Shown: positions 2,163 to 58,730, counted from the first letter of the stretch. The stretch is DNA of 64,000 nt from Alphaproteobacteria bacterium (GCA_045537965.1 JAZSQL010000014.1:4256-68255); one strand, 5' to 3'. Translations and numbers: made by a program. The notes: generated by a model not told the origin, from the letters alone.

Positions 2163-3554
2163 ATGGTAAATATAGGTGCAATAAGTCCAGAATTTGTTGC
2201 TAATATTTCTAGTAATATTTTTATTCAGGTAACGAAGTCTGGTAAGATTTTGTTTTTTAATACCAAAGCAAATTGTGTTTTGGGAAAAGTTGTTGTTGGT
2301 TGTAATTTAGAAGAAATAATCCCTAAAAGTAGTAGTTGTATTTTGTTGCAAAATATTAAAATATCTTTTTATCATCAATATCCTCATCATTTTTATTGGG
2401 GTTTTAAAAATAGGTTTTATTTGGTATATGTTTATCCCCAAGATAGCAGTGTTTGGTTATGTTTTGATGATATAACAGAAAAAAGACAATTAGCTCATCT
2501 TTTGCATATGAATAATCAAAGAACTCTGTTTGCCGAGAGGTTGGCAAAGTTGGGGTATTGGGAACTTGATATTGAAACAAAGAGATTTTATTGGTCTGAT
2601 GAAGTATATAATATATTTGGTATTACAGAAAAAGATAAAACTTATAAAAAAAATCTGATTAGAGAATTTGTTCATCCTAATGATTTGGCACTGTATAAAC
2701 AAAAGTTGAAAGAACTTGTAAGTATAGGTAATGAAGTTGATGGTATTATTAGAATATTGACGGCTGATAATATTACAAAATATTGTAAATTTGTTGCAGG
2801 GTTTATTTATGAAAATGGAGAACCTAAAATAGCTGGAATATTTCAGGATATTAGTATGTTAATAGGAGAGCAAAAACAGCTTAAACAAGCCAAAACAAAG
2901 GCTGATAAATTGAATGCTGAAAAATCTTATTTTTTGGCTCAGGCTAGTCATGATATTAGACAGCCGCTACAGGCAATCAATTTATTTGCAGAGGGTTTGA
3001 AATCAGCTCCTTTAGAAAAATATCCCGAAATAGCGGATAACATTTTGATAGTTAGTCGTAATTTGAATGTATTGTTAAATAATGTGTTAGATATATCTAA
3101 ACTTGATGCTGGTGGAATTTGTTTTAATCCAACAGAATTTGATCTAGGAAAATTGCTTGCTAAATTTTGTGATGAATATGGGATTATTATGCAAGAAACA
3201 GAAATTTCTTTGGCTTGTAATATAAAGAATGTAATTGTTAGACAAGATGTAGTTTTGTTGGAAAGAATTATAAGAAATCTTTTAAGTAATGCCATTAAAT
3301 ATGCGAAAAGTAAAATAAAAATAGGAAATAGTAAAAATTGTTTTTGGATTATAGATGATGGTTGCGGTATAGATAAAAACAATAAGAAACATATATTTGA
3401 ACCGTTTTATCAATGTAACACATTAAGAGATAGAGCAATTGGCGGAACAGGTTTGGGACTTAATATCGTTAAAAAAATTGCAACAGCGATAGGTGCTGAT
3501 ATAAAAGTAAAATCAAAATTAAATTCATACACAATATTTAAGGTGTGTCTATAA
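2163..3554 (+). CDS. Soluble PAS-domain sensor histidine kinase (orphan, no adjacent response regulator)
   Basis: H-box SHDIRQPLQAINLF, N-box LLSNAIKYA, G-boxes IIDDGCGI and GGTGLGLNIVKKIA. PAS-like segment LGYWELDIETKRFYWSDEVYNIFGI. No TM helix. Confidence 0.85.
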   Translation: MVNIGAISPEFVANISSNIFIQVTKSGKILFFNTKANCVLGKVVVGCNLEEIIPKSSSCILLQNIKISFYHQYPHHFYWGFKNRFYLVYVYPQDSSVWLCFDDITEKRQLAHLLHMNNQRTLFAERLAKLGYWELDIETKRFYWSDEVYNIFGITEKDKTYKKNLIREFVHPNDLALYKQKLKELVSIGNEVDGIIRILTADNITKYCKFVAGFIYENGEPKIAGIFQDISMLIGEQKQLKQAKTKADKLNAEKSYFLAQASHDIRQPLQAINLFAEGLKSAPLEKYPEIADNILIVSRNLNVLLNNVLDISKLDAGGICFNPTEFDLGKLLAKFCDEYGIIMQETEISLACNIKNVIVRQDVVLLERIIRNLLSNAIKYAKSKIKIGNSKNCFWIIDDGCGIDKNNKKHIFEPFYQCNTLRDRAIGGTGLGLNIVKKIATAIGADIKVKSKLNSYTIFKVCL

Positions 3555-3642
3555 GTTCTAGTATATCTTATTTAAAGCATTTGCAATTGTTTTATTTTTG
3601 ACATAAAATACGGTCTGATTTTAATAATTTGACGGTGTATTT

Positions 3643-5406
3643 ATGTTTAAGAAACTAAAAGCTAAACTAAAAAATAATAATATGATTCACAATTATTCTA
3701 AGATGTGGAAATATGTTAAGCCATATTGGGGAAGAGCTTTGTTAGCTATGCTCATAACAATTCCAATTGGTGCGATGGACGCAGTAATTGCGTGGGCACT
3801 AAAACCCTATATGGATGTGGTTATGATTGAAAAGGGTGCTAGCTATACTGCTTATATACCGTTGATGATTGTTTTATTTACACTTATTCAAAGTGCTTTT
3901 AATTATTCTGCGACGTATCTTAATACTTGGGTTGGGCAAAAAGTTTCAATAGGTTTAAAGACTGATTTGTATCATAAATTATTACGTTATGATGCAGGTT
4001 TTTTTGATAAACGTAATTCAGGGGAAATTGTTTATCGTTTTAATGGTGATGTTGATACTAGTTGTAATGGTTTATTGACAAACCTTAAGCTTTTTACAAC
4101 AAGGTTGTTTTCATCTTTATCGTTAATAGCTGTGCTTTTTTATAATTCATGGCAGTTGGCTGTTGTGGCTGTAGTTGTTTTGTTTGGAGCATTATATCCA
4201 TTGACAACAGTTAAGCGCAAAATAAAACCTTTAGTATCAAAGTCAGTTTTTTCGGGATCGTCTGTCGTTACTCATTTTAATGAAACGTTTAGTGGTAATA
4301 GGATTATAGCGTCTTATAATTTGTATGATTATCAGTTGGGAAAGTTTAGAACTACGTTGCATGAGTGTTTTCGTCTTGGAATTAAGATGATACAAAGAAC
4401 GGGTATTATGTCACCGATGATGCATTTTATAGTTTCGATTGGTATTGCTGTTGTTATTTGGTTGGGAAGTTATCTTATTGTAACTCATACTATTACTCCT
4501 GGAAACTTTGTTTCGTTTATTGCTGCGTTAATTATGTTGTACACGCCAATAAAGGCTATAGGCAACAATTATAATGCGGTACAAATGGCTTTGTTAGCAA
4601 TGGATCGTGTTTTTGAGCTTTTGGATGGTAAGTCTGAAATTGCTAGTAAACGTGGGGCTCAAAAGATGAATGGGTTAAAAAAAGGAATTGAGTATAAAAA
4701 CGTTTGTTTTGAGTATGAAAAAGATAAGCCTGTATTAAAAAATATTGATTTGAAAATAAAGAAAGGTGAAACAATAGCCTTTGTTGGTAACTCTGGTGGT
4801 GGAAAATCAACAATGGTTAATTTGTTGCCTCGTTTTTATGATGTTAAAGGTGGAGAGCTTTTGTTTGATGGTGTAAATATTAAAGATTTGGATTTAGATT
4901 CATTGCGTAATAATATTGCAATTGTTTTTCAAGATAATTTTTTGTTTGCAGGGACGATTAGAGACAATATTATGCTTGGTAAATTAGATGCGACTGAACA
5001 AGAAGTTAATTTGGCTGTAAAGAATGCTTGTTTAGAAGAATTTGTGGCTGGATTAGAAAAAGGATTAGATACACCTATTGGTGAAAGAGGAGCATTGTTA
5101 TCTGGTGGTCAAAAGCAAAGAATTGCTATAGCTAGAGCTTTTTTGAAAAATGCACCTATTGTTATTTTGGATGAAGCGACATCTGCCTTAGATAATAAAT
5201 CAGAAGCAGTAGTTCAACAAGCAGTTGAAAATTTGATGAAGGATAGAACAGTATTTATTATTGCACATAGGTTATCTACGGTTAGAAATGCTGATAAGAT
5301 AGTTGTTATCAATTATGGTGAATTAGCTGAAATGGGGACGCATGAAGAGTTGTTAAATAAGAAAGATTCTATATATGCTTCCTTGTATCAGTCGCAGTTA
5401 AAATAA
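3643..5406 (+). CDS. ABC exporter, fused permease-ATPase (MsbA/lipid flippase-like)
   Basis: Hydrophobic N-terminal half. Walker A GNSGGGKST, ABC signature LSGGQKQRIAIARA, Walker B VILDEATSALD, H-loop IIAHRLST. Confidence 0.85.
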   Translation: MFKKLKAKLKNNNMIHNYSKMWKYVKPYWGRALLAMLITIPIGAMDAVIAWALKPYMDVVMIEKGASYTAYIPLMIVLFTLIQSAFNYSATYLNTWVGQKVSIGLKTDLYHKLLRYDAGFFDKRNSGEIVYRFNGDVDTSCNGLLTNLKLFTTRLFSSLSLIAVLFYNSWQLAVVAVVVLFGALYPLTTVKRKIKPLVSKSVFSGSSVVTHFNETFSGNRIIASYNLYDYQLGKFRTTLHECFRLGIKMIQRTGIMSPMMHFIVSIGIAVVIWLGSYLIVTHTITPGNFVSFIAALIMLYTPIKAIGNNYNAVQMALLAMDRVFELLDGKSEIASKRGAQKMNGLKKGIEYKNVCFEYEKDKPVLKNIDLKIKKGETIAFVGNSGGGKSTMVNLLPRFYDVKGGELLFDGVNIKDLDLDSLRNNIAIVFQDNFLFAGTIRDNIMLGKLDATEQEVNLAVKNACLEEFVAGLEKGLDTPIGERGALLSGGQKQRIAIARAFLKNAPIVILDEATSALDNKSEAVVQQAVENLMKDRTVFIIAHRLSTVRNADKIVVINYGELAEMGTHEELLNKKDSIYASLYQSQLK

Positions 5407-5421
5407 GATAGAAAGCTAAAA

Positions 5422-5450
5422 GGTTTATCTAAAAAAGGTAAACCTTTTTT
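5422..5450 (+). terminator. Rho-independent terminator after the ABC exporter
   Basis: GGTTTATCT / AGGTAAACC 9-bp stem (one G-U pair), 5-nt A loop, then TTTTTT (5445-5450). Confidence 0.75.
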
Positions 5451-5506
5451 AATAAATGAGATATACAATATAAAATTGTGGTGTTTTTTTATAAGAGGGA
5501 TAGTAA

Positions 5507-8101
5507 ATGGCAAATAAAGAGGTAAAAACAGTTAAAGATTTAGAAGTCCTGATAAAGAAAGTGAAAGAAGCTCAGAAGATTTTTGCAACTTTTGATCAGG
5601 AGAAAATTAATAAGATTTTTAAGGCCGCAGCAACTGCTGCAGATAAGGCTCGTATTCCTTTGGCAAAAATGGCTGCAGCGGATACAGGTATGGGTATTGT
5701 TGAAGATAAGATAATTAAAAATCATTTTGCTGCAGAGTATATCTATAATAAATATAAGAATGAGAAAACCTGTGGTATTATAAAAACAGATAAGACCAAT
5801 GGAATTAAAATAGTGGCTGAGCCTTTAGGGGTTGTAGCTGGGGTTATACCAACAACTAATCCAACATCAACAGCTATATTTAAATCGTTAATTTGTTTAA
5901 AAACTAGAAATGCTATTATCTTTTCGCCTCATCCAAGAGCTAAAAAATCAACAATTGAAGCTGCTAAAGTAATTTATGAAGCGGCTGTTAAAGCGGGAGC
6001 TCCAGAAAATATTATTGGTTGGATTGATGAGCCATCGTTAGAGTTGACAGATTTGTTGATGAAACATCCTGATGTACATGGAATTTTAGCAACAGGCGGT
6101 CCAGGTATGGTTAAGGCAGCATATTCTTCTGGTAAGCCTGCGTTAGGTGTTGGAGCAGGTAATACCCCTGCTGTTATTGATGAAACTGCAGATATTGAAA
6201 TGGCTGTTTCATATATATTAATGTCAAAAACTTTTGATAATGGTATGATTTGTGCGTCTGAACAATCAGTTATTGCAGTTAAGTCTGTTTATGAAAAAGT
6301 AAAACAAGAATTTGTACGCAGAGGTGCATATTTGTTGACAGCTAAAGAAGCTGATAAATTGGCAAAAATTATTCTTACGCCAAAAGGTGTTAATGCAGAA
6401 ATAGTTGGACAGCCTGCAACAAAAATAGCTAAGATGGCTGGGATTGTAGTTCCTGAAACAGCTAAAATTTTATTAGCAGAACAAACTTCAACAGATATTA
6501 CAAATCCCTTTGCTCATGAAAAATTATCTCCTATTTTGACGTTATATAAGGCTGATGATTTTGAGGGTGCTGTTGATAAGGCTTTGGTCTTAGTGGAACT
6601 TGGAGGAATGGGGCATACTTCGGTTTTGTATACTGATACTAGAAAGCAAGATAGAGTAGATTATTTTGCTAAGAAGCTTCCTACAGGACGTTTGTTAATT
6701 AATTCTCCTTCATCGCAAGGTGGTATTGGTGATTTGTTTAACTTTAAATTAGAACCGTCTTTGACTTTAGGATGTGGTTCTTGGGGTGGTAATTCGGTTA
6801 GTGAAAATGTTGGAGTTAAACACTTATTGAATTATAAGACAGTTGCTGAGAGGAGAGAAAATATGTTATGGTTTAGAGTACCACCAAAAATTTATTTTAA
6901 ACGTGGGGCGACAGATATTGCTTTGCGTGAGTTAGAAGGTAAGAAGAGAGCCTTTATTGTGACAGATCGTTATTTGTTTGATTCTGGTATGGTCAATGCT
7001 ATAACTAACGTCTTAGAAGATATGGATATTGAATATCAAATCTTTTTTGATGTTAAGCCAGATCCAACTGTTGCAACAATTAATGAAGCCTTGATGATGG
7101 TTAATGTGTTTAAACCTGATGTGTTTATTTCTTTTGGTGGTGGTTCGCCAATGGATGCGGCCAAGATTATGTGGCTTAAATATGAAAAGCCTGAGATTGA
7201 ATTTGAAGATGTAGCTATGCGTTTTATGGATATTAGAAAACGTATTTGTACAATTGGCGAGTTGGGTAAAAAAGCTTTGATGGTTGCTATTCCTACAACA
7301 TCAGGTACTGGTTCAGAAGTTACGCCATTTGCAGTTATTACCGATGATGAAAGTCATGTGAAATATGCTATTGCTGATTATGCTTTGACACCTAATATGG
7401 CTATTATTGATGCAAACTTCGTTGATAATATGCCAAAAGGTTTGACATCAGCTGGTGGTATCGATGCTTTGGTGCATGCTATCGAGGCTTATGTTTCAGT
7501 AATGGCTACAAACTTTACAAACTCAACAGCTTTAGAAGCTATTAAGCAAGTGTTTAGATATTTGCCAAGAGCTTATAAAGATGGAGCTAACGATCCTAAA
7601 GCTAGAGAAAAAATGCATCATGCAGCAACAATTGCCGGTATGGCGTTTGCAAACTCGTTTTTGGGTTTGTGTCATTCTATGGCTCATAAACTTGGAGCAG
7701 CATTTAATATTCCACATGGAATTGCTAATGCTTTGTTAATTAGCCAAATAATTAAATATAATGCAACTGATTGTCCACGCAAGCAAGCTATATTTCCTCA
7801 ATATAAAATGCCTGAAGCTAAAAGACGTTATGCGCAAATTGCCAGTAACTTAAAGCTTAAAGGTAAAACTGATGATGAAAAAGTTGTTTCTTTGATAGAG
7901 GCAATTGAGGAATTGAAAAAAGAAGTTGAAATTCCTTCGTCAATCAAAGATTTGGGAATTAGTAAAAAAGATTTTGAGGCTAAGTTAGATTGGTTAGTTG
8001 AAAATGCTTTTGATGATCAGTGTACAGGTGCTAACCCTGTGTATCCGTTAATGGAAGATATTAGAAAAATTTATCTTGATGCTTACAATGGAAAGATATA
8101 A
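5507..8101 (+). CDS. adhE: Bifunctional acetaldehyde-CoA / alcohol dehydrogenase
   Basis: 864 aa. N-terminal aldehyde dehydrogenase half (ATGGPGMVKAAYSSGKPALGVGAGN, catalytic-region MICASEQS) fused to an iron-type ADH half (GGGSPMDAAK, HxxxH region HSMAHKLGAAFNIPHG). RBS AGAGGGA upstream. Confidence 0.95.
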   Translation: MANKEVKTVKDLEVLIKKVKEAQKIFATFDQEKINKIFKAAATAADKARIPLAKMAAADTGMGIVEDKIIKNHFAAEYIYNKYKNEKTCGIIKTDKTNGIKIVAEPLGVVAGVIPTTNPTSTAIFKSLICLKTRNAIIFSPHPRAKKSTIEAAKVIYEAAVKAGAPENIIGWIDEPSLELTDLLMKHPDVHGILATGGPGMVKAAYSSGKPALGVGAGNTPAVIDETADIEMAVSYILMSKTFDNGMICASEQSVIAVKSVYEKVKQEFVRRGAYLLTAKEADKLAKIILTPKGVNAEIVGQPATKIAKMAGIVVPETAKILLAEQTSTDITNPFAHEKLSPILTLYKADDFEGAVDKALVLVELGGMGHTSVLYTDTRKQDRVDYFAKKLPTGRLLINSPSSQGGIGDLFNFKLEPSLTLGCGSWGGNSVSENVGVKHLLNYKTVAERRENMLWFRVPPKIYFKRGATDIALRELEGKKRAFIVTDRYLFDSGMVNAITNVLEDMDIEYQIFFDVKPDPTVATINEALMMVNVFKPDVFISFGGGSPMDAAKIMWLKYEKPEIEFEDVAMRFMDIRKRICTIGELGKKALMVAIPTTSGTGSEVTPFAVITDDESHVKYAIADYALTPNMAIIDANFVDNMPKGLTSAGGIDALVHAIEAYVSVMATNFTNSTALEAIKQVFRYLPRAYKDGANDPKAREKMHHAATIAGMAFANSFLGLCHSMAHKLGAAFNIPHGIANALLISQIIKYNATDCPRKQAIFPQYKMPEAKRRYAQIASNLKLKGKTDDEKVVSLIEAIEELKKEVEIPSSIKDLGISKKDFEAKLDWLVENAFDDQCTGANPVYPLMEDIRKIYLDAYNGKI

Positions 8102-8138
8102 GCTAATGTAAAATTAATCCATTGTATTGGAGGGGAAA

Positions 8139-8381
8139 ATGTCAAAAAAGATACAAGTTTGTATGGGAAGTTCTTGTTTTGCAAGAGGCAATAATAAGAA
8201 TTTGCAAGTTATTACAAAGTATCTTAAAGACAATAATTTAGACGCAGAGATTGAACTGTGTGGATTGAGATGTTGTAATCTCTGCTCTAAAGGTCCTAAT
8301 TTGACCATTGATGGTAAAGAATATGATAATGTTGATACAGGAACACTTATTGATATTTTGGATAAGACTTTTAAGGAGTAA
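8139..8381 (+). CDS. Thioredoxin-like [2Fe-2S] ferredoxin (HfsA / NuoE-fold-like small subunit)
   Basis: Cys pattern CMGSSC ... CCNLC (Cx4C ... Cx3C). ATG at 8139 is preceded by GGAGGGG, so the track TTG at 8127 is probably not the start. Ends 3 nt before the HydS-like gene. Confidence 0.7.
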   Translation: MSKKIQVCMGSSCFARGNNKNLQVITKYLKDNNLDAEIELCGLRCCNLCSKGPNLTIDGKEYDNVDTGTLIDILDKTFKE

Positions 8382-8384
8382 TTA

Positions 8385-10145
8385 ATGTCTAGCCGAGAGC
8401 ATCCTCTTTTTACGATTAAAAACAACTGTCAGGATTGTTATAAATGTGTAAGGCAATGTCCTGTAAAAGCAATTAAAATTGAAGAAAATTCAGCACAAAT
8501 AGTGCCAGAGCTTTGTGTTGCTTGTGGTAAATGTTATAAAATATGTCCAGTAAGAGCAAAACAAGATAGAGATGATGTTACTCGGGCAAAAAATATGTTG
8601 GCAATGGGTGAAAAAGTTTATGTTTCATTGGCACCGTCGTGGATTGCTGAATTTGATAATGTTACAAAAGAACAATTATTGACAGCAATTGAGAAGTTAG
8701 GTTTTGCGGGAGTTAGTGAAACAGCTCTTGGAGCTGAAGAAGTTTCTGCTCATGTGGCGGAATTTTTGAGCGATAAAAAAACAGGAGTTTTTTTATCAAC
8801 AGCATGTCCTGCATTTGTTGAGTATATTAGGAAATATAGACCAGAATTAACCAAGAATTTAACTCCTGTTATGTCTCCAGTTTTAGCGCATAGCAAAATT
8901 ATGCGCGCTAAATTAGGCGAAGATATTAAAATAGTATTTGTTGGTCCATGTATTGCTAAAAAATTTGAAGCTGACAGAAATGCTGATTTGCTAAATTTAA
9001 GTATTTCCTTTAGGGATTTGCGTAGGTGGTTAAGAGAATCTGGTATTAATTATCATAATATTGAACCTAAAAATAAGATTGATTTTGTTTGCAAACGAGC
9101 TGAAGAGGGGCGGTATTATCCTATTGAAGGTGGTATGATTGAAACGATAACGCATTATAATAAAACAAAAGATGTTTATATGATGCAACTTACAGGTTTG
9201 GAAAATATTCAAAGAGAATTATCCGATATTGATGGTACCAACCCAGAAAAAGCTGTATTTATAGAATGTTTGGCTTGTGAGGGGGGGTGTGTTAATGGTC
9301 CTTGTACTCGTTCGCATAAATCTGGCTTTGAAAAAAGAGCTAGAGTTATAAAAGATGTTAAGCTTGGTGAAAATACAGGTAATCGAGAATATAGTTATGA
9401 TATTGATTGTAGCTATGATAATGCTCCAGTTGAACAGAAAAAATATGATGAAGATCAAATAAAAAGAGTGTTAGCATTATTGGGTAAGCACACTATTGAA
9501 GATGAAATAAATTGTAATGCTTGCGGATATGACAATTGTCGCAATTTTGCTAGAGCTATTTTGGAAGGAAAAGCTGAAATTGATATGTGTGTTTCACATA
9601 TTAAACACCAAGCTCAACGAAAAGCCAATGCTTTGTTAAAGTGTATTCCTTCACCAATTGTTATTGTTAATTCTAATTTATCAATTATTGAATATAATGA
9701 ACAATTTTTACAAGCTTTTTGGAATGATGAAGAACACGGCGATATTTATGACAGTAATAATTTAATAGGAGCTAATTTGCGTGATTTTGTTAGCTTTACT
9801 AACCTATTTTCAGCATCGCTAGAGTTAGGTGAAGATGTTAAACGTGAAAATGTGCATCATGATGAAAGGGTTTTTGATGTTATGGTGTTTAATATTGAGC
9901 AAAAACAAGTTGTTGGCGGTGTAATTACTGATGTTACTAAGGTGGAAATTAAGCGTGAAAAAATTGCTGAAAAAGCTAAGGAAGTTATTGAGAAAAACTT
10001 AGCAACAGTTCAGCAAATAGCGTGTACTTTGGGTGAGCATATGGCAGAAACCGAAGTTTTGTTGCGTTCAATTGCTAAAGATTATTCAGTAGGTGAAAGT
10101 GATAGACCAAATATTACTATTCGTAATAAAAGGGATAGTAAATAA
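8385..10145 (+). CDS. Sensory-type [FeFe]-hydrogenase-like protein with C-terminal PAS domain (HydS / HfsB-like, group C)
   Basis: Two ferredoxin motifs (CQDCYKCVRQCP, CVACGKCYKICP). H-domain motifs are LSTACPAF (Ala where catalytic enzymes have the first Cys of TSCCP), VGPCIAKKFE and ECLACEGGCVNGP. Extra Cys motif CNACGYDNCRNFARAILEGKAEIDMC (Cx2Cx4Cx16C). The C-terminal ~170 aa is PAS-like (IPSPIVIVNSNLSIIEYNEQF...). Confidence 0.8.
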   Translation: MSSREHPLFTIKNNCQDCYKCVRQCPVKAIKIEENSAQIVPELCVACGKCYKICPVRAKQDRDDVTRAKNMLAMGEKVYVSLAPSWIAEFDNVTKEQLLTAIEKLGFAGVSETALGAEEVSAHVAEFLSDKKTGVFLSTACPAFVEYIRKYRPELTKNLTPVMSPVLAHSKIMRAKLGEDIKIVFVGPCIAKKFEADRNADLLNLSISFRDLRRWLRESGINYHNIEPKNKIDFVCKRAEEGRYYPIEGGMIETITHYNKTKDVYMMQLTGLENIQRELSDIDGTNPEKAVFIECLACEGGCVNGPCTRSHKSGFEKRARVIKDVKLGENTGNREYSYDIDCSYDNAPVEQKKYDEDQIKRVLALLGKHTIEDEINCNACGYDNCRNFARAILEGKAEIDMCVSHIKHQAQRKANALLKCIPSPIVIVNSNLSIIEYNEQFLQAFWNDEEHGDIYDSNNLIGANLRDFVSFTNLFSASLELGEDVKRENVHHDERVFDVMVFNIEQKQVVGGVITDVTKVEIKREKIAEKAKEVIEKNLATVQQIACTLGEHMAETEVLLRSIAKDYSVGESDRPNITIRNKRDSK

Positions 10146-11321
10146 ATGACTGATTCTTTGTTTATTGAAATAGGTTCGCATCAAGAACATAAGCATAGCG
10201 AAAGTTGTTTTGGTGATGCTATTGTTTCTAAAAAGTTGCCAGAAGAACAAAGAATAATATCAGTTTTGTCTGATGGTTTAGGTAGTGGTGTAAAAGCTAA
10301 TATTTTGTCATCTATGACAACAAGAATGGCTATGAAATTTATTGAAAGTGATCTAGACTTAGTTCGTTCTGCAGAAGTTATGATGCAAGCATTGCCAGTG
10401 TGTCAGGTTAGAAAGATTAGCTATGCAACTTTTTCCATTGTAGATGCGATGTTAGAAGGAAAAACTCGTGTTTATGAAATGGACAATCCTGCGTGTTTTA
10501 TAATGCGTAATTTTGAGCAGATGACTCTACCTCATCATGAAATTACAGCAGATAATTGGAAAGACAGAATTATCAATGTTTATCAGTTTTTAGCGAAAGA
10601 AGAAGATAGAATCATTATAATGTCTGATGGGGTAACACAGGCTGGTTTGGGTAATCCAAAATATCCTTTAGGGTGGCAAAGAGAAGGTGTTTGGAAATTT
10701 ATTGAAAATCAAGTTCGGCGTCATCCTCATATTTCTGCTAGCGCATTAGCGGAGGCAATTGTTCATGAGGCTTTGTCTAAAGAACCAGAGGGTAAAGCTG
10801 GTGATGATATTAGTTGTACGGTAATATATTTTAGAAAACCTAGGAAACTTTTGCTGCTTAGTGGACCGCCATTTGATGAGGAAAAAGATAAAGAAATTGC
10901 TGAAATGATAGATTATTATGATGGTAAAACGGCAATTTGTGGTGGAACAACGGCAAATATCATTGAAAGAGAATTGTGTCTTAAATGTGAGATGGATAAA
11001 ACAACTTTTGATCCTAACATTCCGATGGCATCAATAATGCCTGGGATTGATTTGGTTACGGAAGGTATTCTTACATTAACAGATGTTTATCGTATGTTAA
11101 AAGAAGGTGTTGACGAAGATAAAGATAATGCAGCTGTAAGATTAGCAAATTTGTTGCTTGATTCTGATAAGATAGATTTTGTTATTGGAACAAAAATTAA
11201 TGAAGCACATCAGGATCCTAATTTACCAATGGAGCTTGACATTCGTAGAAATATTGTTAAAAAGATTTTTAGATTATTACAAAGCAAATTCTTAAAAGAG
11301 ATAAGCGTAAAATATGTTTAA
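10146..11321 (+). CDS. PP2C / SpoIIE-family serine phosphatase (HfsC-like)
   Basis: SVLSDGLGSGVKANILS and IIIMSDGVTQAG metal-binding Asp motifs, plus GDDISCTVIYF. Its start codon abuts the HydS-like stop (TAAATG). The C-terminal ~150 aa is an extra domain of unknown role. Confidence 0.8.
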   Translation: MTDSLFIEIGSHQEHKHSESCFGDAIVSKKLPEEQRIISVLSDGLGSGVKANILSSMTTRMAMKFIESDLDLVRSAEVMMQALPVCQVRKISYATFSIVDAMLEGKTRVYEMDNPACFIMRNFEQMTLPHHEITADNWKDRIINVYQFLAKEEDRIIIMSDGVTQAGLGNPKYPLGWQREGVWKFIENQVRRHPHISASALAEAIVHEALSKEPEGKAGDDISCTVIYFRKPRKLLLLSGPPFDEEKDKEIAEMIDYYDGKTAICGGTTANIIERELCLKCEMDKTTFDPNIPMASIMPGIDLVTEGILTLTDVYRMLKEGVDEDKDNAAVRLANLLLDSDKIDFVIGTKINEAHQDPNLPMELDIRRNIVKKIFRLLQSKFLKEISVKYV

Positions 11322-11341
11322 TTTTAAAAGGACAAAAACAA

Positions 11342-11617
11342 ATGGAAAAGATAAAAGTTAAACTTTGTGCAGGTACCGCTTGTTTTGTTATGGGGGCACC
11401 TCAAGTTCAAGCTTTGGAGTTTTCTGCTCCAGAGGATATAGCTGACAAAATAGAGATTACAGAGGTTAGATGCATGAATCACTGTAATCAGGGACGTAAT
11501 TATAATAAAGGTCCATTTGTGGAAGTAAATGGTGAGTTGATTGAAGAAGCTACTTTTGAAAAAGTTGTGGCCAAAATTAGAGAGTTGATTGCTAAAGAGG
11601 AAAATGAACAGTGCTAA
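11342..11617 (+). CDS. Thioredoxin-like [2Fe-2S] ferredoxin, paralogue of 8139-8381
   Basis: CAGTAC ... CMNHC (Cx4C ... Cx3C) and GPFVEVNGE, as in the first copy (GPNLTIDGK). Overlaps the next gene by 7 nt. Confidence 0.7.
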   Translation: MEKIKVKLCAGTACFVMGAPQVQALEFSAPEDIADKIEITEVRCMNHCNQGRNYNKGPFVEVNGELIEEATFEKVVAKIRELIAKEENEQC

Positions 11618-13062
11618 TACCTAAGAATTATGCTAACCAAATGCGTACTAGAATTTTGGTTAAGGTTGTTGAAAGTTTTTATAAGGATAGATTTGAAACT
11701 GCGGATGAAATTCCAATAGATTTGCGTCCCAAGGATTATGATTCTAGTCGTTGTTGTATTTATAAAGATAGAGCTATTTTGAAATATCGTTTAATGGCTG
11801 CTATGGGAATTGCACCACATGAAGAAGTTAGCGAAGTTACAACTTTGCGTGAATATGGAAAAGAAGCTTTAAAACGTCAAAATCATGCTAAAAGTTGTTT
11901 ATCGGTAATTGATATTGCTTGTTCTGCTTGTGTTAAATCACAATATATGGTTACAGATGCTTGTCGAGGCTGTTTTGCTCGTCCATGTGTTATGAATTGT
12001 CCTAAACAGGCGATTTCATTTGTTAATGGAAAATCACATATTGATCCAGATTTGTGTGTGTCATGTGGAAAATGTATGGAGGTTTGTCCCTATCATGCTA
12101 TTGTTAAATTACCAGTTCCTTGTGAAGAGGCTTGTCCTGTAGGAGCTATTAAAAAAGATGAGCATGGTGTGGAACATATTGATGAAGAAACTTGTATTTC
12201 TTGCGGGAAATGTTTGCAGTCATGTCCTTTTGGGGCGATTGTGGAACGTTCGCAATTGGTTGATGTTTTGAATCTTATTCATAATAGCGATAAAAAGGTT
12301 GTAGCAATGTTGGCTCCAGCAATTGTTGGACAATTTCCTTTCGAACTCAACCAAGTTGTTGGCGCTTTGAAAAAAGCAGGTTTTGCTGATGTTGTTGAGG
12401 TTGCAGCTGGAGCAGATATTACATCAACAAATGAGTCGGCAGAATTTATTGAAAGAATGGAAGAGGGGGCTAATTTTATGACAACTTCTTGTTGTCCTGC
12501 ATATTTTAGAGCAGCCCAAGTTCATATTCCAGAACTTAAGCCTTTTGTTTCTCATACTAAAACACCAATGTATTATACAGCTGAAATGCTCAAAAAAGAG
12601 CAACCTGATTGTATTTCAGTGTTTGTTGGTCCTTGTTTGGCTAAGCGTACAGAAGCTGAATATGATCCTAATGTTGATTATGTTTTAACATTTGAAGAAA
12701 TAGGTGCGATGTTTGTTGGTGCAGGAATCGAAATAGGTGATTGTGAACCAATGGAATTTGCTAAAGTTTCTTCGGCTCAAGCTCGTAAATACCCATTATC
12801 TGGTGGTGTTGCAGCTGCGGTAGGTAATTTGGTTGAAGGTAAGGTTGATTTTAGACCAGAAAGAATCGATGGTTTGAGTAAAGAAAATATCAAATTACTG
12901 AAGCGTTATGCAACCAAAGGTTGTGAAAACAATATGATTGAAGTTATGTGTTGTGAGGGTGGTTGTATTGCTGGTCCTGGATGCATATCTTTAGCTAAAA
13001 AAGCAGCACGTCAGGTCGAGACTTATGTTGATAAAGGTCAAAACCAAAAAGATATGAAATAA
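11611..13062 (+). CDS. [FeFe]-hydrogenase, multi-ferredoxin-domain monomeric type (group-B-like)
   Basis: Several 4Fe-4S motifs (CSACV...CRGCFARPCVMNCP, CVSCGKCMEVCP, CEEACP, CISCGKCLQSCP). H-cluster motifs are TTSCCPAY (both Cys retained), VGPCLAKRTE and EVMCCEGGCIAGPGC. Start is GTG at 11611 or the ATG at codon 11. Confidence 0.8.
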   Translation: MLIPKNYANQMRTRILVKVVESFYKDRFETADEIPIDLRPKDYDSSRCCIYKDRAILKYRLMAAMGIAPHEEVSEVTTLREYGKEALKRQNHAKSCLSVIDIACSACVKSQYMVTDACRGCFARPCVMNCPKQAISFVNGKSHIDPDLCVSCGKCMEVCPYHAIVKLPVPCEEACPVGAIKKDEHGVEHIDEETCISCGKCLQSCPFGAIVERSQLVDVLNLIHNSDKKVVAMLAPAIVGQFPFELNQVVGALKKAGFADVVEVAAGADITSTNESAEFIERMEEGANFMTTSCCPAYFRAAQVHIPELKPFVSHTKTPMYYTAEMLKKEQPDCISVFVGPCLAKRTEAEYDPNVDYVLTFEEIGAMFVGAGIEIGDCEPMEFAKVSSAQARKYPLSGGVAAAVGNLVEGKVDFRPERIDGLSKENIKLLKRYATKGCENNMIEVMCCEGGCIAGPGCISLAKKAARQVETYVDKGQNQKDMK

Positions 13063-13080
13063 ATTTGTTTTATAAATAAT

Positions 13081-13117
13081 AAAGCCTCTCTGAAAAAAAG
13101 AGAGGCTTTATTATTTT
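13081..13117. terminator. Bidirectional intrinsic terminator between the hydrogenase gene and proS
   Basis: Perfect 11-bp stem AAAGCCTCTCT / AGAGAGGCTTT with a 7-nt loop. T-rich tail on the + strand, A-rich leader giving a U-tail on the - strand. Confidence 0.8.
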
Positions 13118-13122
13118 GCTAA

Positions 13123-14640
13123 CTAATAGCTTCTAGCGTAGATAACATCTAAAGTTGCTGGTTTGCCTGTAAGCAAGCATTCTCCTGTTGTACCTGATTG
13201 ATCAAATGGAATACAACGAATGGTGATTTTCATTGATTTCAATATTTCTTCGGTTGTTTCATCGCCACACCATTTACCACGAACAAAAGCAACTTTGCCT
13301 TGTTTGCCATCTTCAATCCATTCGTTAGAATTGGCAAAATATTCAGCAAAAGATTCTTTGGTTGTAATATCGTTTCTAATGTTAGCATCCATACGGTCTT
13401 TTGCCCTTTGGAACATTGTTGCTTGAATATCTTCGAGATATTTAGCAGCATTATTTACAAATTCATCGCGAGCAATTATTTTTTTGCCTTCAGGAGTATT
13501 GATATAGATACGAGTTTTAACCATCAAATTGTTACCATCTGCATCACGCTTACCAACTTCTAGAATTATAGGAGCTCCTTTACGTGTCCATTCCCAGAAT
13601 TTGTCAACAGATGCTTTGTCTCGTTTATCCAATTTAACACGTATTTTTTCGCCAAACGGCATTTGTTTTTGTAAATCAGATTGCAAAGATTTGATGTATT
13701 GCATTACTGCATCAGTATCTGCAACATTTTTAATAACAGGTACAATCACAATTTGATATGGAGCTATCTTTGGAGGGGTAACCATTCCTTCGTCATCGGC
13801 ATGAGTCATAATAACGCCACCAATTAGACGAGTTGAAACACCCCAAGATGTAGTATAAGCATATTCTTGTTGGTTGTTTTTGTTTACAAACGAAATATTT
13901 GCAGATTTAGCAAAGTTTTGACCTAAGAAATGAGATGTACCTGCTTGCAATGCTTTGCCATCTTGCATCATTGCTTCAATACAATAGGTGTCAACGGCTC
14001 CTGGAAATTTATCATATTCTGGTTTGCGTCCAATGATTACAGGCATAGCTAAAGTTTCTTCGCTTAGTTCGCGATATGCTTCAAGCATTAATTTAGTTTC
14101 TTCTTCGGCTTCTTGATATGTCGAGTGAGCTGTATGTCCTTCTTGCCACAAAAATTCACGAGTGCGCAAGAAAAGACGAGGGCGCATTTCCCAACGGACA
14201 ACGTTTGCCCATTGGTTAATCAAAACAGGTAGGTCACGATATGATTTTACCCATTTAGAAAAAGAATCGGCAATAATTGTTTCAGAAGTTGGACGAACAA
14301 TCAAAGGTTCATCAAGTTCAGAAGAAGGTTTTAATTTGCCATTTTCTGATGCCAAGCGAGAATGGGTAACAACGGCCATTTCTTTGGCAAAACCATCAAC
14401 GTGTTCAGCCTCTTTTTGAAAAAATGAAAGCGGAATAAACATTGGAAAATAGCAGTTTTCATGGTCGGTTGATTTTATTTTTTCATCAAATACATCGCGT
14501 ATGCGTTCCCAAATTCCATATCCCCAAGGTTTTATAACCATACAACCTGGAGATGAAGAGTTTTCAGCCATATCTGATTCTGCTACAACGCATTGATACC
14601 ACTCTGGGTAATTATCTTTTCTAAGTTTTTTGATAGTCAT
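13123..14640 (-). CDS. proS: Prolyl-tRNA synthetase, archaeal/eukaryote-like type
   Basis: N-terminus YPEWYQCVVAESDMAE...GCMVIKPWGYGIWERI, class II core, no long INS insertion. C-terminal domain ends ...LDVIYARSY. The start is moved to the ATG at 14640 (MTIKKL), which has an AGGA RBS; the track start at 14697 has none. Confidence 0.9.
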   Translation of the reverse strand: MTIKKLRKDNYPEWYQCVVAESDMAENSSSPGCMVIKPWGYGIWERIRDVFDEKIKSTDHENCYFPMFIPLSFFQKEAEHVDGFAKEMAVVTHSRLASENGKLKPSSELDEPLIVRPTSETIIADSFSKWVKSYRDLPVLINQWANVVRWEMRPRLFLRTREFLWQEGHTAHSTYQEAEEETKLMLEAYRELSEETLAMPVIIGRKPEYDKFPGAVDTYCIEAMMQDGKALQAGTSHFLGQNFAKSANISFVNKNNQQEYAYTTSWGVSTRLIGGVIMTHADDEGMVTPPKIAPYQIVIVPVIKNVADTDAVMQYIKSLQSDLQKQMPFGEKIRVKLDKRDKASVDKFWEWTRKGAPIILEVGKRDADGNNLMVKTRIYINTPEGKKIIARDEFVNNAAKYLEDIQATMFQRAKDRMDANIRNDITTKESFAEYFANSNEWIEDGKQGKVAFVRGKWCGDETTEEILKSMKITIRCIPFDQSGTTGECLLTGKPATLDVIYARSY

Positions 14641-14749
14641 TTGTTTATTCCTTTTCATAACGTAATGAAATGCCCACACCCCCATTGGTGCAGGCATGCA
14701 GATAGAAATATAGCATATATTTTAATTTTGTGAAGTTTTTTCTTTAAGA

Positions 14750-15516: not shown

Positions 15517-16056
15517 TTAAAATTGTTCTTGCAATTCAAAGAAATATGCTTGTGGATGATCACAAACAGGGCATTTTGCAGGAGCGTTAGCTGCTTCGAT
15601 ACGACAACCACAGTTTGCACATTCCCAAACAACTTTGGTTGGACGAGTAAACACAGTACCTTCTGTGATAGCTTTTAATAGTGCTTGATAGCGTTCTTCG
15701 TGACCTTTTTCAATTTTGGCAACCATATCGAATAATGCAGCAATTTTAGTGAAGCCTTCTTCTTTGGCTTCTTTGGCCATACGAGCATACATGTCTGTCC
15801 ATTCATAATTTTCACCAGCAGCTGCATCTTTTAAGTTTTCCATTGTTGATGGAACTTCGCCACCATGAAGAAGTTTAAACCAAATTTTGGCATGTTCTTT
15901 TTCGTTGTTAGCGGTTTCTTCAAACTTAGATGCGATAATATTATAACCTTCTTTTTTTGCTTTAGAAGCATAATAGGTATATTTGTTGCGGGCCATAGAT
16001 TCGCCAGCAAAGGCATCCATGAGATTTTTTTCAGTTTTTGAACCTTTTAGTTCCAT
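15517..16056 (-). CDS. rbr: Rubrerythrin
   Basis: N-terminal ferritin-like di-iron domain ([35 protein letters not shown]). C-terminal rubredoxin-like CANCG...CPVCDHP. Confidence 0.9.
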
Positions 16057-20341: not shown

Positions 20342-20398
20342 ACCTCAGGGCTTGTTTTTTAAGCCTTGGGGAATTTTTATTTATGGGGAATAATTTTG

Positions 20399-23300
20399 AT
20401 GTCTAATCGAACAGCTGATAATGGCAGTAATGTTACTGTTTTGCCGCAGTTTATGAAAGAAAATAATAACTATAATAATTCGATAGAAATAGAAGAGAAA
20501 ACATCATGGCTAAACAATAATTTACACAAATTGATGGTGGGTATTAGTGTTGTTTGGTTCGCAATTGTTTTGGTTTATATTACACAGTTTTTTGGTTGGT
20601 CTAATCTCTTTTTGATGATGCCAGATGAATTTGGTGGTTTTTTGGCAGGAGTAACTTTGCCATTGGCTATTATTTGGGTTGTTATGGCCTATATAGATAG
20701 AGGTTCCTCATTTAAGCAAGAAGCTAAGTTTTTGCGTGCTTATATGAATCAGCTTGTTTATCCAGAAGATAGTGCTCCCCAAACAGCTAAAGCTATGGCC
20801 GATGCTATTCGTTCGCAAGTGGTTGAATTGCAACAAGTTTCTAAATTGGCTCATGAACAGACATCTCAGATTAAAGATGCAATTAAAAACAATGTTGATG
20901 ATTTTGCTAAATTGGTTGGAAAACTTGATAATTATTCAACTAAAACCATCGTTGAATTGAGTGATGGTGTTAAATTTTTGATGGCTAATTTTGAAAATAT
21001 TTTAAATAAGGCTCAGACATCTAGTCAAAATTTTGCGCAAATAAATCGTGAATTTATTGATGGGGGGAATAGTATTGAAAAATCGCTAACAGCAATGTTT
21101 GATAAGCTATTGCCACGTATAAAAGAAATTAATGATATGACTGCTGTATTGAGGGAAGTTGCAACTGGTTCAGCTTTAGACATATCAAAAGCGAATGATA
21201 ATCTTAGAAGTTTTGTTGAAAAAACAGATACAACTTTTGATGATATGAAAAATATGTTGGTTGGACATACAAATTCGTTGAAACAATTGGCTGAACAAGC
21301 AATGGTAAATTGCAATTTGGCTAAGACTACAGTGGCTAAAGAAATTGCCAATATGGAAGATGTTTTGCAAAATCATAGTCAGAAAATGGCGTTAGTTTTA
21401 GAAGAAAGCGGACAAGAATTTAAAGAAAAAACAGAGATAGCTACTAAAAATGCGTTAGAAAGTATTGCTGTTATTAACCAAAATGTTAAAGAAGGGCTCG
21501 ATAGTGTTGATGGGGCTGTAGATTTACAAATTCAGAAAATTGATACAGCATTGGCTAAACATAATCGTGATTTGACCGCTTTTGTAAAAGTTTTGGATGA
21601 AAAAGCGGAAGGTGTAAATAAAAAATTTGCAGTTCATAGTGAGATAGTTGGACAAGAACTTGATAGATTGATGGTTAGAAGTTCTAATTTGGAAGATGCT
21701 TTGGCAATGCAAGTTAATAATCTTAATGGTATTTCTGATAAAGCTATAGCTTCTATCCAAGATGTTGAAAATGCCTTAGCCAATAGTGTTGTTAGCTTAG
21801 ATGAAAAAGTGTTGGCTGCAAATGGCGATATTTTGTCTTATGTTGATACTTTGAATGAAAAAGCTTCAGAATTTGAAAAAATTAGTGAAGAAAGTACTGA
21901 TAAAGTTATTGAATTGACAGATGTGTTAAATAAACGTTATGCAGATTTGCAAAAGGGTGTTGCTAGTGGAATAAACCAATTGCAACAGGTTGATAAAGAA
22001 ATTGATGAAGCAACAGAGAACTTGATGGTTCAGACTGCTCAGTCGGTTGAAAGTATTAATCAAGTTGCTTCGTTAATGCAAAAACATACTAATAGTTTGA
22101 CAGAAGCTTCATCAATTGTGGTAACACAAAGTCAGATTAGTGAAGTTTCGTTGGCACAACAACAAAAACATATTACTGATACGGCTGCTCGTGTTGAAGA
22201 AATTAAGAATGAACTTAAAAGACAAATAGATGAGTTGTCTGAGGCGTCGGGAAGTTTAGAAAAAGATGCTGTTAATGTTTTAGAGATGTTGAAATCTAAT
22301 ATTGCTAAAATGTTAGCTAGTTGTAACGAGACAATAAATAAGAGTAAAATGATTAATGATAATTTGGCTGAACAAGCAAATCAATTTGATACTTCAGCTA
22401 ATCGTACAATGACAAAAGTTACTCAGTTTGAAAATGTCTTAATTAAACAATCTCAAAACATGGAAACTTTAGCAAATAATATAAGTGAAAAAACGGATAT
22501 TATAGCTAAAACTTTAGAAGAGCATACGCAAAAGCTTGATGAAACAACAAATAATTCAGAGAGTGTTTTGGCTAAGTCAATTAATGAGTTTGAAAATAAG
22601 AGTGATGCTATTAACGAAGTTGCAAAGACTGCAGCCGAATATATTAGTAATACAATTGAAGGACTTGATGATAAGGTTTCAACTTTAAATATTTTATTCC
22701 GTCAGCAAGAGGCCGATTTTTATGCGTATTGTGAAAAGGTTTCTGAAAATACAAATCGTATGGCTGAAATTCTTAAAAAACAAATAACAGGTGTAGAAGA
22801 GGGAGCCGATAAGCTATTTGCACGACTGGTTGTTTTGGAAGAAGATACAGGACGTAAGGCTGAAACTGTAGTTGCAAACTCGCAAAAATCTATTCAAGAA
22901 TTGGCTGAAGTTGAGAAAATGTTGGCTGAAAAACATAGTTTGGCAGAGAAAACTGTTGATGACACAATAGTTAAGCTTACATCTATTGGTGATGCTGTAA
23001 AACAACATTTAGAAGAATTTGATGCTACGGTTGTTTCTATGAAAAATAATGTGGGTGAATCTTTACAAGGTTTGTCTGATGGAACGGAAAAAATGCAATC
23101 ACTTCATGATGACTTGATAAAAAATGGGGATGTTGTTTGGAAAAGACTTAGCGAACAAACTACCTATATGGAAAATATGGGTATTAAGTTGGTATCGCAG
23201 GGTGAGAATATTGCAAATATGCTAGAATTGCAAAAAAATAATATTTCTGAAGTAGTTAATACTTTAGCTACCCAAGCTCGTTTGGGTGAAGCTTCAATGG

Positions 23301-35579: not shown

Positions 35580-36191
35580 ATGAAAAGTATTGTTTGCGCA
35601 AAAAAGAAAAAAGAACGCCAATATGGTGTGATTTGGGGTGCTCCAAATGCATCTGTTGCAAAGAGAGAATATGCTCCAGGTCAACATGGTCAAAGAAGAA
35701 AAAAACCTACTGATTATGGTGTTCAGTTGTCTGCTAAACAAAAATTGAAAACATATTATGGTAATGTTTCTGAAAAACAATTCCACAAATATTATGTAGA
35801 AGCTATTCGTCGTTCTGGTGACGCTGCTGAAAACTTGATTGGTATTTTGGAATCTCGTTTGGATAATATCGTTTACAAAGCTAAATTTGTACCAACTATT
35901 TTTGCTGCTCGTCAGTTTGTAAACCATGGACATGTTACTGTTAATGGTAAAAAGGTTAATATTCCTTCATATATGTTAAAAGCTGGTGATGTTATTGAGG
36001 TTAGAGCAAAATCTAAGCAATTGCCTATTGTTATAGCTGCTTTAGAATCTACATCTCGTGATGTTCCTGCTTATGTTGAGTTGGATGCAAAGAAAGCTGT
36101 TGCTAAGTTTGCTTTTGTTCCTAAGTTTGAAGATGTGCCTTATGCATCTGTTATGGAACCAAATCAGGTTATCGAGTTCTACTCAAGATAA
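35580..36191 (+). CDS. rpsD: 30S ribosomal protein S4
   Basis: [32 protein letters not shown] and the S4 domain [42 protein letters not shown]. Confidence 0.95.
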
Positions 36192-36254: not shown

Positions 36255-36322
36255 AAAAAAGATAAATATCAGATAATATTAGTTATCTTTTGCAATGTTA
36301 TATTGAATATGAGGATAGAAAT

Positions 36323-52285: not shown

Positions 52286-52861
52286 TTAATAAGATATTCC
52301 AGCAAATCCCATAAACGCCATCGAAAGTAACGCTGCTGTAATTAGTACAATAGGTGTTCCCCTTAATGCTTTAGGAATATCTGTACGTTCTAAACGTTCT
52401 CGAATACCTGCAAAAATTACAATTGCTAAAGTAAATCCCATTGCAGAAGCTAATGTATAGCAAACACCAGCTAGTAAAGTGTAATTCTTTTGAATTGTAA
52501 GAATTGCAATACCTAAAACAGCACAGTTAGTAGTAATAAGTGGAAGAAAAATTCCTAAAGACTGATACAAAACTGGAGAACTTTTTTTTATGATAATCTC
52601 AACCATTTGTACTAATGATGCTATTACTAAAATAAACGTAACAGTAGTCATAAATTTAAGGTTGTATGGCTGTAGGAATGTGTAGTAAATCAAAAAGGTT
52701 ACAATAGTTGCAAGAGTCATAACAAACATTACAGCTAGTCCCATTCCAATAGCTGTTGATAATTTTTTAGACACACCTAAGAAAGGACATATTCCTAAAA
52801 ATTGTGATAATATTATATTATTAACAAATATCGCTGTAATAAAAATCATTATATAGGCCAT
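52286..52861 (-). CDS. rnfA: Rnf complex subunit A
   Basis: 191-aa polytopic protein (NNIILSQFLGICPFLGVS, LPLITTNCAVLG). Confidence 0.9.
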   Translation of the reverse strand: MAYIMIFITAIFVNNIILSQFLGICPFLGVSKKLSTAIGMGLAVMFVMTLATIVTFLIYYTFLQPYNLKFMTTVTFILVIASLVQMVEIIIKKSSPVLYQSLGIFLPLITTNCAVLGIAILTIQKNYTLLAGVCYTLASAMGFTLAIVIFAGIRERLERTDIPKALRGTPIVLITAALLSMAFMGFAGISY

Positions 52862-52863
52862 GA

Positions 52864-53460: not shown

Positions 53461-53461
53461 T

Positions 53462-55035: not shown

Positions 55036-55042
55036 TGTTAGT

Positions 55043-57612: not shown

Positions 57613-57616
57613 TTTG

Positions 57617-58618: not shown

Positions 58619-58730
58619 ATTTATACCTGTATAATTACAAAGTTGCTTTTTACAAAAAACAAAAAGTGTTTTATAGTTAAGCGCATATAAAGTCAATAAT
58701 CTAATTTTTAATAGCTATAAGGATACTAGC

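Follow-up and report, generated by a model that had tools for sequence, protein, structure and literature searches.

Positions 8385 to 11321 of the DNA analysed here, a stretch of 64,000 nucleotides from an Alphaproteobacteria bacterium (GCA_045537965.1, JAZSQL010000014.1:4256-68255; hereafter the window), encode a putative sensory [FeFe]-hydrogenase of the HydS type and the PP2C-type phosphatase whose gene abuts it. In our judgement these are very probably the two core proteins of a 'group C3' H2-sensing module, which would tune the co-encoded hydrogenase and the bifunctional aldehyde/alcohol dehydrogenase AdhE. The six-gene unit to which they belong (Table 1) is the known 'group C3' or Hfs arrangement, and a layout in which one gene stands between the group C3 and the group B enzymes had already been described (PMC6163223). 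The initial annotation of this DNA had presented the phosphatase as the only visible signalling partner of a sensor whose remaining partners were missing; a phosphatase as sole partner beside a group B hydrogenase is, however, what 'group C3' describes (PMC6163223; PMC6776011). Since such a phosphatase is normal for the family, the locus is a further copy of a known and widespread pair, and the question of its signalling output belongs to the whole family and not to this genome. Taken alone, the locus matters little, being one more group C3 HydS-phosphatase module, here together with Rnf, AdhE and a hydrogenase of group B; more is gained from the comparative by-products presented below.

HydS and its phosphatase across phyla

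HydS is predicted to be a group C (M2f/HydS/HfsB-type) sensory [FeFe]-hydrogenase, able to bind an H-cluster and devoid of the catalytic proton relay. Members of the M2f subclass have two [4Fe-4S] clusters, an H-domain, a Cx2Cx4Cx16C motif and a PAS domain, and have lost the cysteine equivalent to Cys299 (PMC8163306). The 586-residue product of the open reading frame (ORF) at 8385 carries the group C hallmarks, as the initial annotation had recognised. Its active-site residues were assigned by alignment to the Clostridium pasteurianum hydrogenase CpI. All four H-cluster cysteines are present (C141, C189, C298 and C302, equivalent to C300, C355, C499 and C503 of CpI), and the position of Cys299 is occupied by Ala140, in agreement with the earlier reading of the TACP motif as the loss of the proton-relay cysteine. 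Met353 is replaced by Gly187 (in GPC) and Met497 by Leu296 (in ECLAC), and along the rest of the CpI proton path Arg286 has become Asp and Glu279 falls on a gap or a His. The Cx2Cx4Cx16C motif, which had also been noticed from the sequence, presumably binds an extra [4Fe-4S] cluster between H-domain and PAS domain.

A genome scan from an alignment of 16 phosphatase sequences revealed relatives of the phosphatase in at least 589 species, and the best 80 loci were analysed. They span Alphaproteobacteria, Acidobacteriota, Planctomycetota, Verrucomicrobia and Lentisphaerae, Melainabacteria, Spirochaetes, Bacteroidales, Syntrophobacterales, Hydrogenedentes and one member of the Bacillota. A simple ORF caller recovered full-length HydS-like and phosphatase genes in 64 of these loci, from more than 10 phyla, and residue conservation was counted in 65 HydS-PP2C pairs. 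The proton-relay cysteine is lost in 63 of the 65 HydS proteins, with Ala at its position in 56, and Gly occupies the Met353 site in 62. Of the H-cluster ligands, C141, C189 and C302 are found in all 65 proteins and C298 in 61; the four cysteines of the Cx2Cx4Cx16C motif are likewise invariant (65/65). The C-terminal PAS domain proposed initially is a sound assignment at the level of the family, because among 27 diverse HydS C-termini PAS_8 is matched in 21, PAS_9 in 17 and PAS in 13. The helix that follows it may serve as the coupling element to the phosphatase. In this tail, positions with Val, Gln, Gly, Glu and Leu show no variation between phyla, Ruminococcus albus included.

The second core protein is predicted to be an HfsC-type PP2C translationally coupled to HydS. 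Its ATG at 10146 directly abuts the HydS stop codon, as had been seen initially, and the association is general: in 63 of the 64 loci the phosphatase gene is directly preceded by that of HydS, and at the junction the two genes overlap by 4 nt in 21 pairs and by 1 nt in 12, and meet with zero gap in 5 (38 pairs). The sole part of the phosphatase covered by Pfam is a SpoIIE/PP2C match (aa 34-228, E 3e-10). The AlphaFold2 model, made with a diverse alignment, scores a predicted local distance difference test (pLDDT) of 92.7 and a predicted TM-score (pTM) of 0.89, and Foldseek matches it with 3PU9 (E 3e-15), SpoIIE (5MQH, E 1e-13), the RsbU domain of Rv1364c and RsbX, which bears out the family assigned at first. 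Asp24, Asp43-Gly44, Asp161-Gly162 and Asp220-Asp221 are invariant in the 65 phosphatases; judged from known PP2C motifs these aspartates would be the metal sites, and an active phosphatase is expected from their conservation.

What stays constant over more than 10 phyla is a core made up of HydS and the two-domain phosphatase; the kinase and Rex present in R. albus are accessory. In alphaproteobacterial relatives at 84% and 61% identity a five-gene core is kept, with different flanks. The neighbours that recur in the 80 loci are Trx-like (thioredoxin-like) proteins, a HydA-type hydrogenase or bifurcating HydB/HydC subunits, and hydrogenase maturases; Rex is found in 12-14 loci, and AdhE adjoins HydS-PP2C in about 11, from at least five phyla. 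No kinase or STAS family recurs in four or more of the 80 loci, contrary to the initial view that a Ser kinase usually accompanies this pair. The kinase of the R. albus cluster is, by domain scan, an APH/RIO-like phosphotransferase; neither the window nor any of the 80 loci contains a homologue of it, and its type was seen only in clusters of Oscillospiraceae and Lachnospiraceae. That AdhE recurs next to HydS-PP2C in phyla that are not related speaks for a general switch of electron sink between H2 and ethanol, and suggests that ethanol formation was coupled to the H2 sensor repeatedly or anciently.

Two further observations concern the neighbourhood. The adhE gene stands directly beside HydS-PP2C(-HydA), either upstream or downstream, in L006, L007, L012, L029, L031, L036, L041, L057, L058, L060, L085, L099 and L100, which belong to Alphaproteobacteria, Planctomycetota, Acidobacteriota, Victivallales, Gastranaerophilales and Clostridia. 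In the Bacteroidales loci L067, L076, L079 and L081, and also in L021, L030 and L083, HydS-PP2C lies beside a bifurcating-type HydABC, with NuoF-like (644 aa) and NuoE-like (156 aa) subunits, and not beside a group B hydrogenase; the catalytic hydrogenase that accompanies this sensor pair thus differs between lineages.

Among the described relatives, the eight-gene cluster of R. albus 7, read from the pRUMAL01 plasmid record, runs Rex-AdhE-phosphotransferase-Trx-Trx-HydS-SpoIIE phosphatase-HydA2. It shares with the window the order AdhE, Trx-like 2Fe2S protein, HydS, PP2C and ferredoxin-type hydrogenase, and its HydS has the same set of domains. The identity between the two HydS proteins is 30.6% (576 alignment columns), that between the phosphatases 30% over 99% of the window protein, the C-terminal domain included, and that between HydA2 and the window hydrogenase 37%. 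Expression of the R. albus cluster is 111-fold down when a partner organism keeps H2 low (PMC6776011). In spite of these similarities, the two clusters differ in several respects: (i) the window has neither Rex nor the APH/RIO-like kinase; (ii) one of its Trx-like genes lies between the phosphatase gene and hydA, whereas both are upstream in R. albus; and (iii) it is carried by an alphaproteobacterium, on a 246-kb contig with housekeeping genes, whereas that of R. albus is on a plasmid.

A comparable arrangement is the hfsABCD operon of Thermoanaerobacterium saccharolyticum and T. thermosaccharolyticum, which encodes a small protein, HfsB (a HydS with a PAS domain), HfsC (a Ser phosphatase) and HfsD (a ferredoxin-linked hydrogenase), and is free of kinase genes (PMC11837493). 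It is genetically linked to adhE, whose transcripts rise two- to three-fold upon deletion of hfsB in T. saccharolyticum (PMC5707799). This likeness is drawn from literature descriptions alone, with no sequence aligned (PMC5707799, PMC11837493). In contrast to the window, adhE is not reported within the Thermoanaerobacterium operon, and no known protein is said to resemble HfsA, whereas the two small proteins of the window are clearly of the thioredoxin-like [2Fe-2S] type. Because HfsD is a hydrogenase, the 'HfsD-like Ser kinase' that the initial annotation expected in such loci is a misattribution. By analogy with these relatives, the module would be linked physiologically to H2, HydA2 and AdhE.

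The work on hfs also bears on the view that HydS is not a sensor, but a catalytic or electron-transfer subunit of an Hfs-type hydrogenase (Trx-like protein, HydS and HydA) that the phosphatase regulates post-translationally. In T. saccharolyticum, the hfs genes were originally reported to encode the main H2-evolving hydrogenase, and hydrogenase activity falls when hfsABCD is deleted (PMC5707799); furthermore, the window protein keeps all the H-cluster ligands and the full Fe-S relay, and the unit has a conserved pair of small [2Fe-2S] proteins. However, deletion of hfsB alone raises hydrogenase activity and hfsD alone restores the phenotype (PMC5707799, PMC11837493), while the proton-relay cysteine is lost in nearly the whole family, and a PAS domain together with an obligatory phosphatase partner speaks for signalling. 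We consider a catalytic role for HydS very unlikely.

Two other systems resemble the module. The M2f, group C protein Tm HydS of Thermotoga maritima has the same architecture, has lost Cys299 and carries Gly for Met353 (PMC8163306), although Met497 is Ser there and Leu in the window HydS. The regulatory [NiFe]-hydrogenase system HoxBC-HoxJ-HoxA of Cupriavidus necator (Ralstonia eutropha) follows a like logic, in that H2 is sensed by a hydrogenase that is itself crippled and that controls, through a partner with a PAS domain, the phosphorylation-dependent expression of catalytic hydrogenases (PMC5707799); the metal centre and the proteins are nevertheless unrelated, and the output of Hox consists of a histidine kinase with its response regulator in place of a PP2C.

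Signalling route and candidate partners

The steps that we infer are H2 sensing by this HydS, the coupling of its PAS domain to the phosphatase, and the target. H2 would react slowly at the H-cluster of HydS and set the redox state of the protein's Fe-S chain, of which the Cx2Cx4Cx16C cluster beside the PAS domain is a part; the PAS domain and the conserved C-terminal helix would relay this redox state to the bound phosphatase and switch its activity. The phosphatase, in turn, would dephosphorylate a Ser/Thr phosphoprotein encoded elsewhere in the genome, and this would adjust the expression or activity of the ferredoxin-dependent hydrogenase and AdhE, so that electrons would go to ethanol rather than to H2 when H2 accumulates.

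Several points weigh against an H2-sensing module of this kind: (i) H2 sensing by HydS and signalling by its phosphatase have only been proposed, even in model organisms, and for this protein and this organism the case is built on sequences and structural models and is non-experimental. (ii) By alignment, two residues of the CpI proton path, Glu282 and Ser319, appear to be kept, and residual turnover is therefore possible; the pathway is lost at Cys299, Arg286 and Glu279 and not throughout, so that its disablement, as suggested by the initial annotation, stands in part. This apparent retention also sets the protein apart from Tm HydS. (iii) On the window HydS alone, PAS_9 scores 21.7 bits, under the Pfam cut-off of 27. 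(iv) The 80 loci are those closest to the window phosphatase, which leaves the Firmicutes under-sampled. (v) The 64-kb window does not allow a substrate, a kinase or a transcription factor to be named, as the initial annotation had concluded for the phosphatase substrate and the output.

Partners in the window were sought with Pfam over nearly all ORFs and by tblastn with the Rex and the kinase of R. albus. The Pfam scan of the 64 kb found no STAS protein, Rex, anti-sigma-type kinase (HATPase_c_2), Pkinase or APH/RIO protein, and tblastn found nothing better than E = 1 in the window, with fragments of 14-19 residues only; the absence of STAS, Rex and anti-sigma kinase noted at the outset was thereby borne out. 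Outside the Pfam scan were ORFs 20-1186, 1179-2147 and 3643-5406, whose orthologues in the relative L001 comprise two with ABC-type Pfam families and one, of 321 aa, without any, and ORFs 35580-36191, 59432-60946 and 63258-63998, which were judged by eye only. A kinase/STAS pair just beyond the window in the same operon, a possibility raised initially, is moot, because the unit (from adhE at 5507 to proS at 13123) lies well inside.

The only kinase in the window is an orphan PAS-HisKA-HATPase_c histidine kinase, and its gene is syntenic with adhE-hydS in L001 and L006, which are the closest relatives. That it should be the signalling partner of HydS-PP2C is exceedingly improbable, and we have rejected it: its chemistry is His/Asp and not Ser/Thr, an ABC-transporter gene and a terminator-like hairpin separate it from adhE, the synteny does not extend to the relatives at 61% identity or to any other phylum, and the Pfam scans of the window found no response regulator. 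A histidine-kinase-like ATPase has been reported as a neighbour of the PAS-less group D Tam HydS (PMC8163306).

The fold of the phosphatase brings in another explanation, namely a dispersed partner-switching system in which the phosphatase would act, as RsbU, RsbP or SpoIIE do, on a phospho-STAS protein, with the anti-sigma-type kinase and a sigma factor or other output encoded elsewhere and the present module as the sensor arm. Indeed, the closest structures are SpoIIE, the RsbU domain of Rv1364c, RsbX, SiaA and a stressosome-associated PP2C, and the best Pfam and NCBIfam matches are SpoIIE. As in SpoIIE, RsbU and RsbP, a PP2C fold of the SpoIIE/RsbU subfamily with intact metal-binding aspartates is placed under a separate sensory domain. 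However, the sensor is here a separate Fe-S/H-cluster protein, the Pfam scan of nearly all ORFs of the 64 kb gave neither STAS nor HATPase_c_2, neither recurs in the 80 loci, and the only kinase seen beside such a module, that of the R. albus clade, is not anti-sigma-like. We regard partner switching as unlikely, and keep to the H2-sensing module with a phosphoprotein target encoded elsewhere.

The C-terminal domain of the phosphatase

As the initial annotation had pointed out, the phosphatase carries an extra C-terminal domain (aa 232-391), to which Pfam gives no match in this protein. It had been singled out as a possible missing interface; it is, however, not peculiar to this locus but common to the whole family of HydS-linked phosphatases, that of R. 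albus included. The domain family comprises 821 clusters at 50% identity, and in its full-length members (about 380-430 aa) the domain is at the C-terminal end. The shorter members resemble fragments, mostly truncated gene calls from an internal Met, and short 'stand-alone' C-domain proteins were not counted as evidence. The C-terminal domain is more conserved than the phosphatase domain, with a mean column identity of 60% across phyla; Gly266, Thr268, Glu306, Asn352 and His355 are invariant in 65 of 65 proteins, and the AlphaFold2 fold is confident, with a pLDDT mostly above 90.

The domain is without an NCBIfam model. Pfam searches at E up to 5 with 27 members gave scattered weak matches only (NBD_C in 3/27, BcrAD_BadFG in 1/27) and none to methylglyoxal synthase (MGS), and a profile search of the PDB with the domain gave a chance-level match only. 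In Foldseek searches of the PDB and BFVD with full-length phosphatase models, PP2C alone appeared among the matches listed, and no solved structure spans both phosphatase domains (TMq <= 0.49): the conserved extension is absent from every solved PP2C.

By eye, the domain is collinear with methylglyoxal synthase at three places (CGGTTANI/ATGTTGNL, KIDFVIGT/KIDVLIFF and AHQDP/PHDPD). An hhalign comparison with 13 MgsA proteins, itself chosen by eye, gave a probability of 26-32% and P values of 5e-4 to 7e-4 over 31 columns, in local mode only (controls, P 0.06-0.13), and backs the first of these motifs only. The resemblance is a lead, and unproven.

This lead is the basis for a further explanation, in which HydS and its phosphatase are self-contained. 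The C-terminal domain would be a phosphate- or nucleotide-binding module, possibly MGS-like, and would itself be the 'missing' partner, as a metabolite gate or by phosphotransfer; HydS-PP2C would then either integrate the signals of H2 and of a phosphorylated metabolite or work as a phosphotransfer enzyme, acting directly on AdhE, HydA or Rex without a dedicated kinase nearby. The domain is always fused to HydS-linked phosphatases and surpasses the phosphatase domain in conservation, with the invariant residues given above; its strand-GGTTA-helix resembles the phosphate-binding ATGTTG of methylglyoxal synthase, the few NBD_C matches are to a nucleotide-binding family, and no kinase is conserved in the neighbourhood. 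Against this, the hhalign probability is low and confined to 31 columns of a comparison picked by eye, the Pfam and PDB sequence searches lend it no support, and the domain could equally be a docking surface for HydS. We therefore hold a self-contained unit to be quite unlikely, and are just as doubtful of a ligand-binding or phosphotransfer function for the domain. If true, a ligand-binding domain would explain why no kinase is conserved beside HydS-PP2C in any phylum, and would provide the first handle on signalling by [FeFe] sensory hydrogenases. The domain is the most obvious unexplored clue to their signalling mechanism.

The gene unit and its surroundings

The host is an uncultured, low-GC, fermentative alphaproteobacterium of gut type, and the G+C content of the window is about 32%. 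Six tightly spaced genes on the + strand lie between an ABC-transporter gene, which ends at 5406, and the convergent proS, in the order adhE, trx-like 2Fe2S, hydS, PP2C, trx-like 2Fe2S and group-B1 hydA, with intergenic gaps of at most about 37 nt. The adhE gene is likely to be the first of the unit and its product a likely target of regulation; the gap to the next gene is 25-37 nt, according to the start codon chosen. Between the ABC-transporter gene and adhE there is an AT-rich hairpin (5418-5448) followed by a T run, on account of which adhE probably opens the transcription unit. A generic promoter/terminator scan of 3400-13400 was at chance level, and a search for Rex boxes (TTGTGAA-N6-TTCACAA, up to 3 mismatches) gave 10 matches against 10.7 expected, none of them upstream of adhE.

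Table 1. Genes and protein features of the adhE-hydS-PP2C-hydA unit and its neighbours (positions in the window)
Feature	Position	Strand	Basis or remark
Orphan PAS-HisKA-HATPase_c histidine kinase, 463 aa	2163-3554	+	only HATPase_c protein in window; two genes upstream of adhE
adhE, bifunctional aldehyde/alcohol dehydrogenase, 864 aa	5507-8101	+	Pfam Aldedh, Fe-ADH, ADH_Fe_C
Small thioredoxin-like [2Fe-2S] protein, 80 aa	8139-8381	+	PF01257 E 2e-9
HydS/HfsB-like putative H2-sensing [FeFe]-hydrogenase, 586 aa, group C, M2f/C3 type	8385-10145	+	
HydS N-terminal 2x[4Fe-4S] ferredoxin-like domain, aa 12-58	8418-8558	+	Fer4 matches, two CxxCxxCxxxCP motifs
HydS H-domain, aa 76-306	8610-9302	+	PF02906 (Fe_hyd_lg_C) E 7e-48
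TACP motif, HydS aa 139-142	8799-8810	+	CpI Cys299 site = Ala140
Cx2Cx4Cx16C motif, HydS aa 377-402	9513-9590	+	PF04060 'FeS' E 3.4e-10 over aa 375-403
HydS PAS domain, aa 422-518	9648-9938	+	PAS_9 E 2.5e-4
HydS conserved C-terminal helix, aa ~530-575	9972-10109	+	family alignment; consensus KNLxTVQxIAxLLGExxAETE
HfsC-like SpoIIE/PP2C phosphatase, 391 aa	10146-11321	+	
PP2C/SpoIIE-type Ser/Thr phosphatase domain, aa 1-231	10146-10838	+	PF07228, AlphaFold2, Foldseek
Family-specific alpha/beta C-terminal domain, aa 232-391	10839-11321	+	motifs TGPP, CGGTTA, DLVTEG, VGTxINxAHQDPxLP
Second thioredoxin-like [2Fe-2S] protein, 91 aa	11342-11617	+	PF01257 E 2e-6
Monomeric group B1 [FeFe]-hydrogenase, 483 aa, HfsD/HydA2-like	11611-13062	+	TIGR04105, PF02906 E 4e-59
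proS, prolyl-tRNA synthetase	13123-14697	-	convergent; closes unit

The mechanical ORF of the first Trx-like gene starts at a TTG (8127), and an ATG at 8139 is preceded by GGAGGGG, which resembles a ribosome-binding site; in L001 and L003 its place is taken by orthologues of 80 aa, and a Trx-like homologue is found upstream of HydS in most of the 80 loci. The position of the second Trx-like gene is kept in many of them. The 483-aa hydrogenase scores 541 bits against the NCBIfam model TIGR04105, 'monomeric [FeFe] hydrogenase, B1' (cut-off 450), its TSCCP motif is intact, and it is presumably the ferredoxin-dependent, H2-evolving enzyme under control. It keeps EVMCC (Met497-type) but has GPC for MPC, so that the position of CpI Met353 is Gly, as in HydS, and it has an N-terminal extension of about 100 aa ahead of its Fe-S domains.

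Elsewhere in the window there is a complete Rnf cluster (RnfB, C, D, G, E and A), with RseC/MucC-like and ApbE genes, at 52286-58696 (- strand), and a rubrerythrin gene at 15517-16056; together with AdhE and the two [FeFe]-hydrogenase genes, these indicate a strictly fermentative, ferredoxin-based metabolism in an alphaproteobacterium. Two long proteins have no significant Pfam family: one of 1405 aa (20366-24583, + strand), by eye a membrane-anchored coiled-coil, and one of 898 aa (36290-38986, + strand), by eye with N-terminal membrane segments and an acidic, repetitive tail. Finally, over the first 42 kb or so the GC skew has strongly positive values (0.1-0.43) and the genes are mostly on the + strand, and from 42000 to 64000 it is near zero or negative and they are mostly on the - strand; this change could be a replication-related strand switch or a mere effect of gene orientation.

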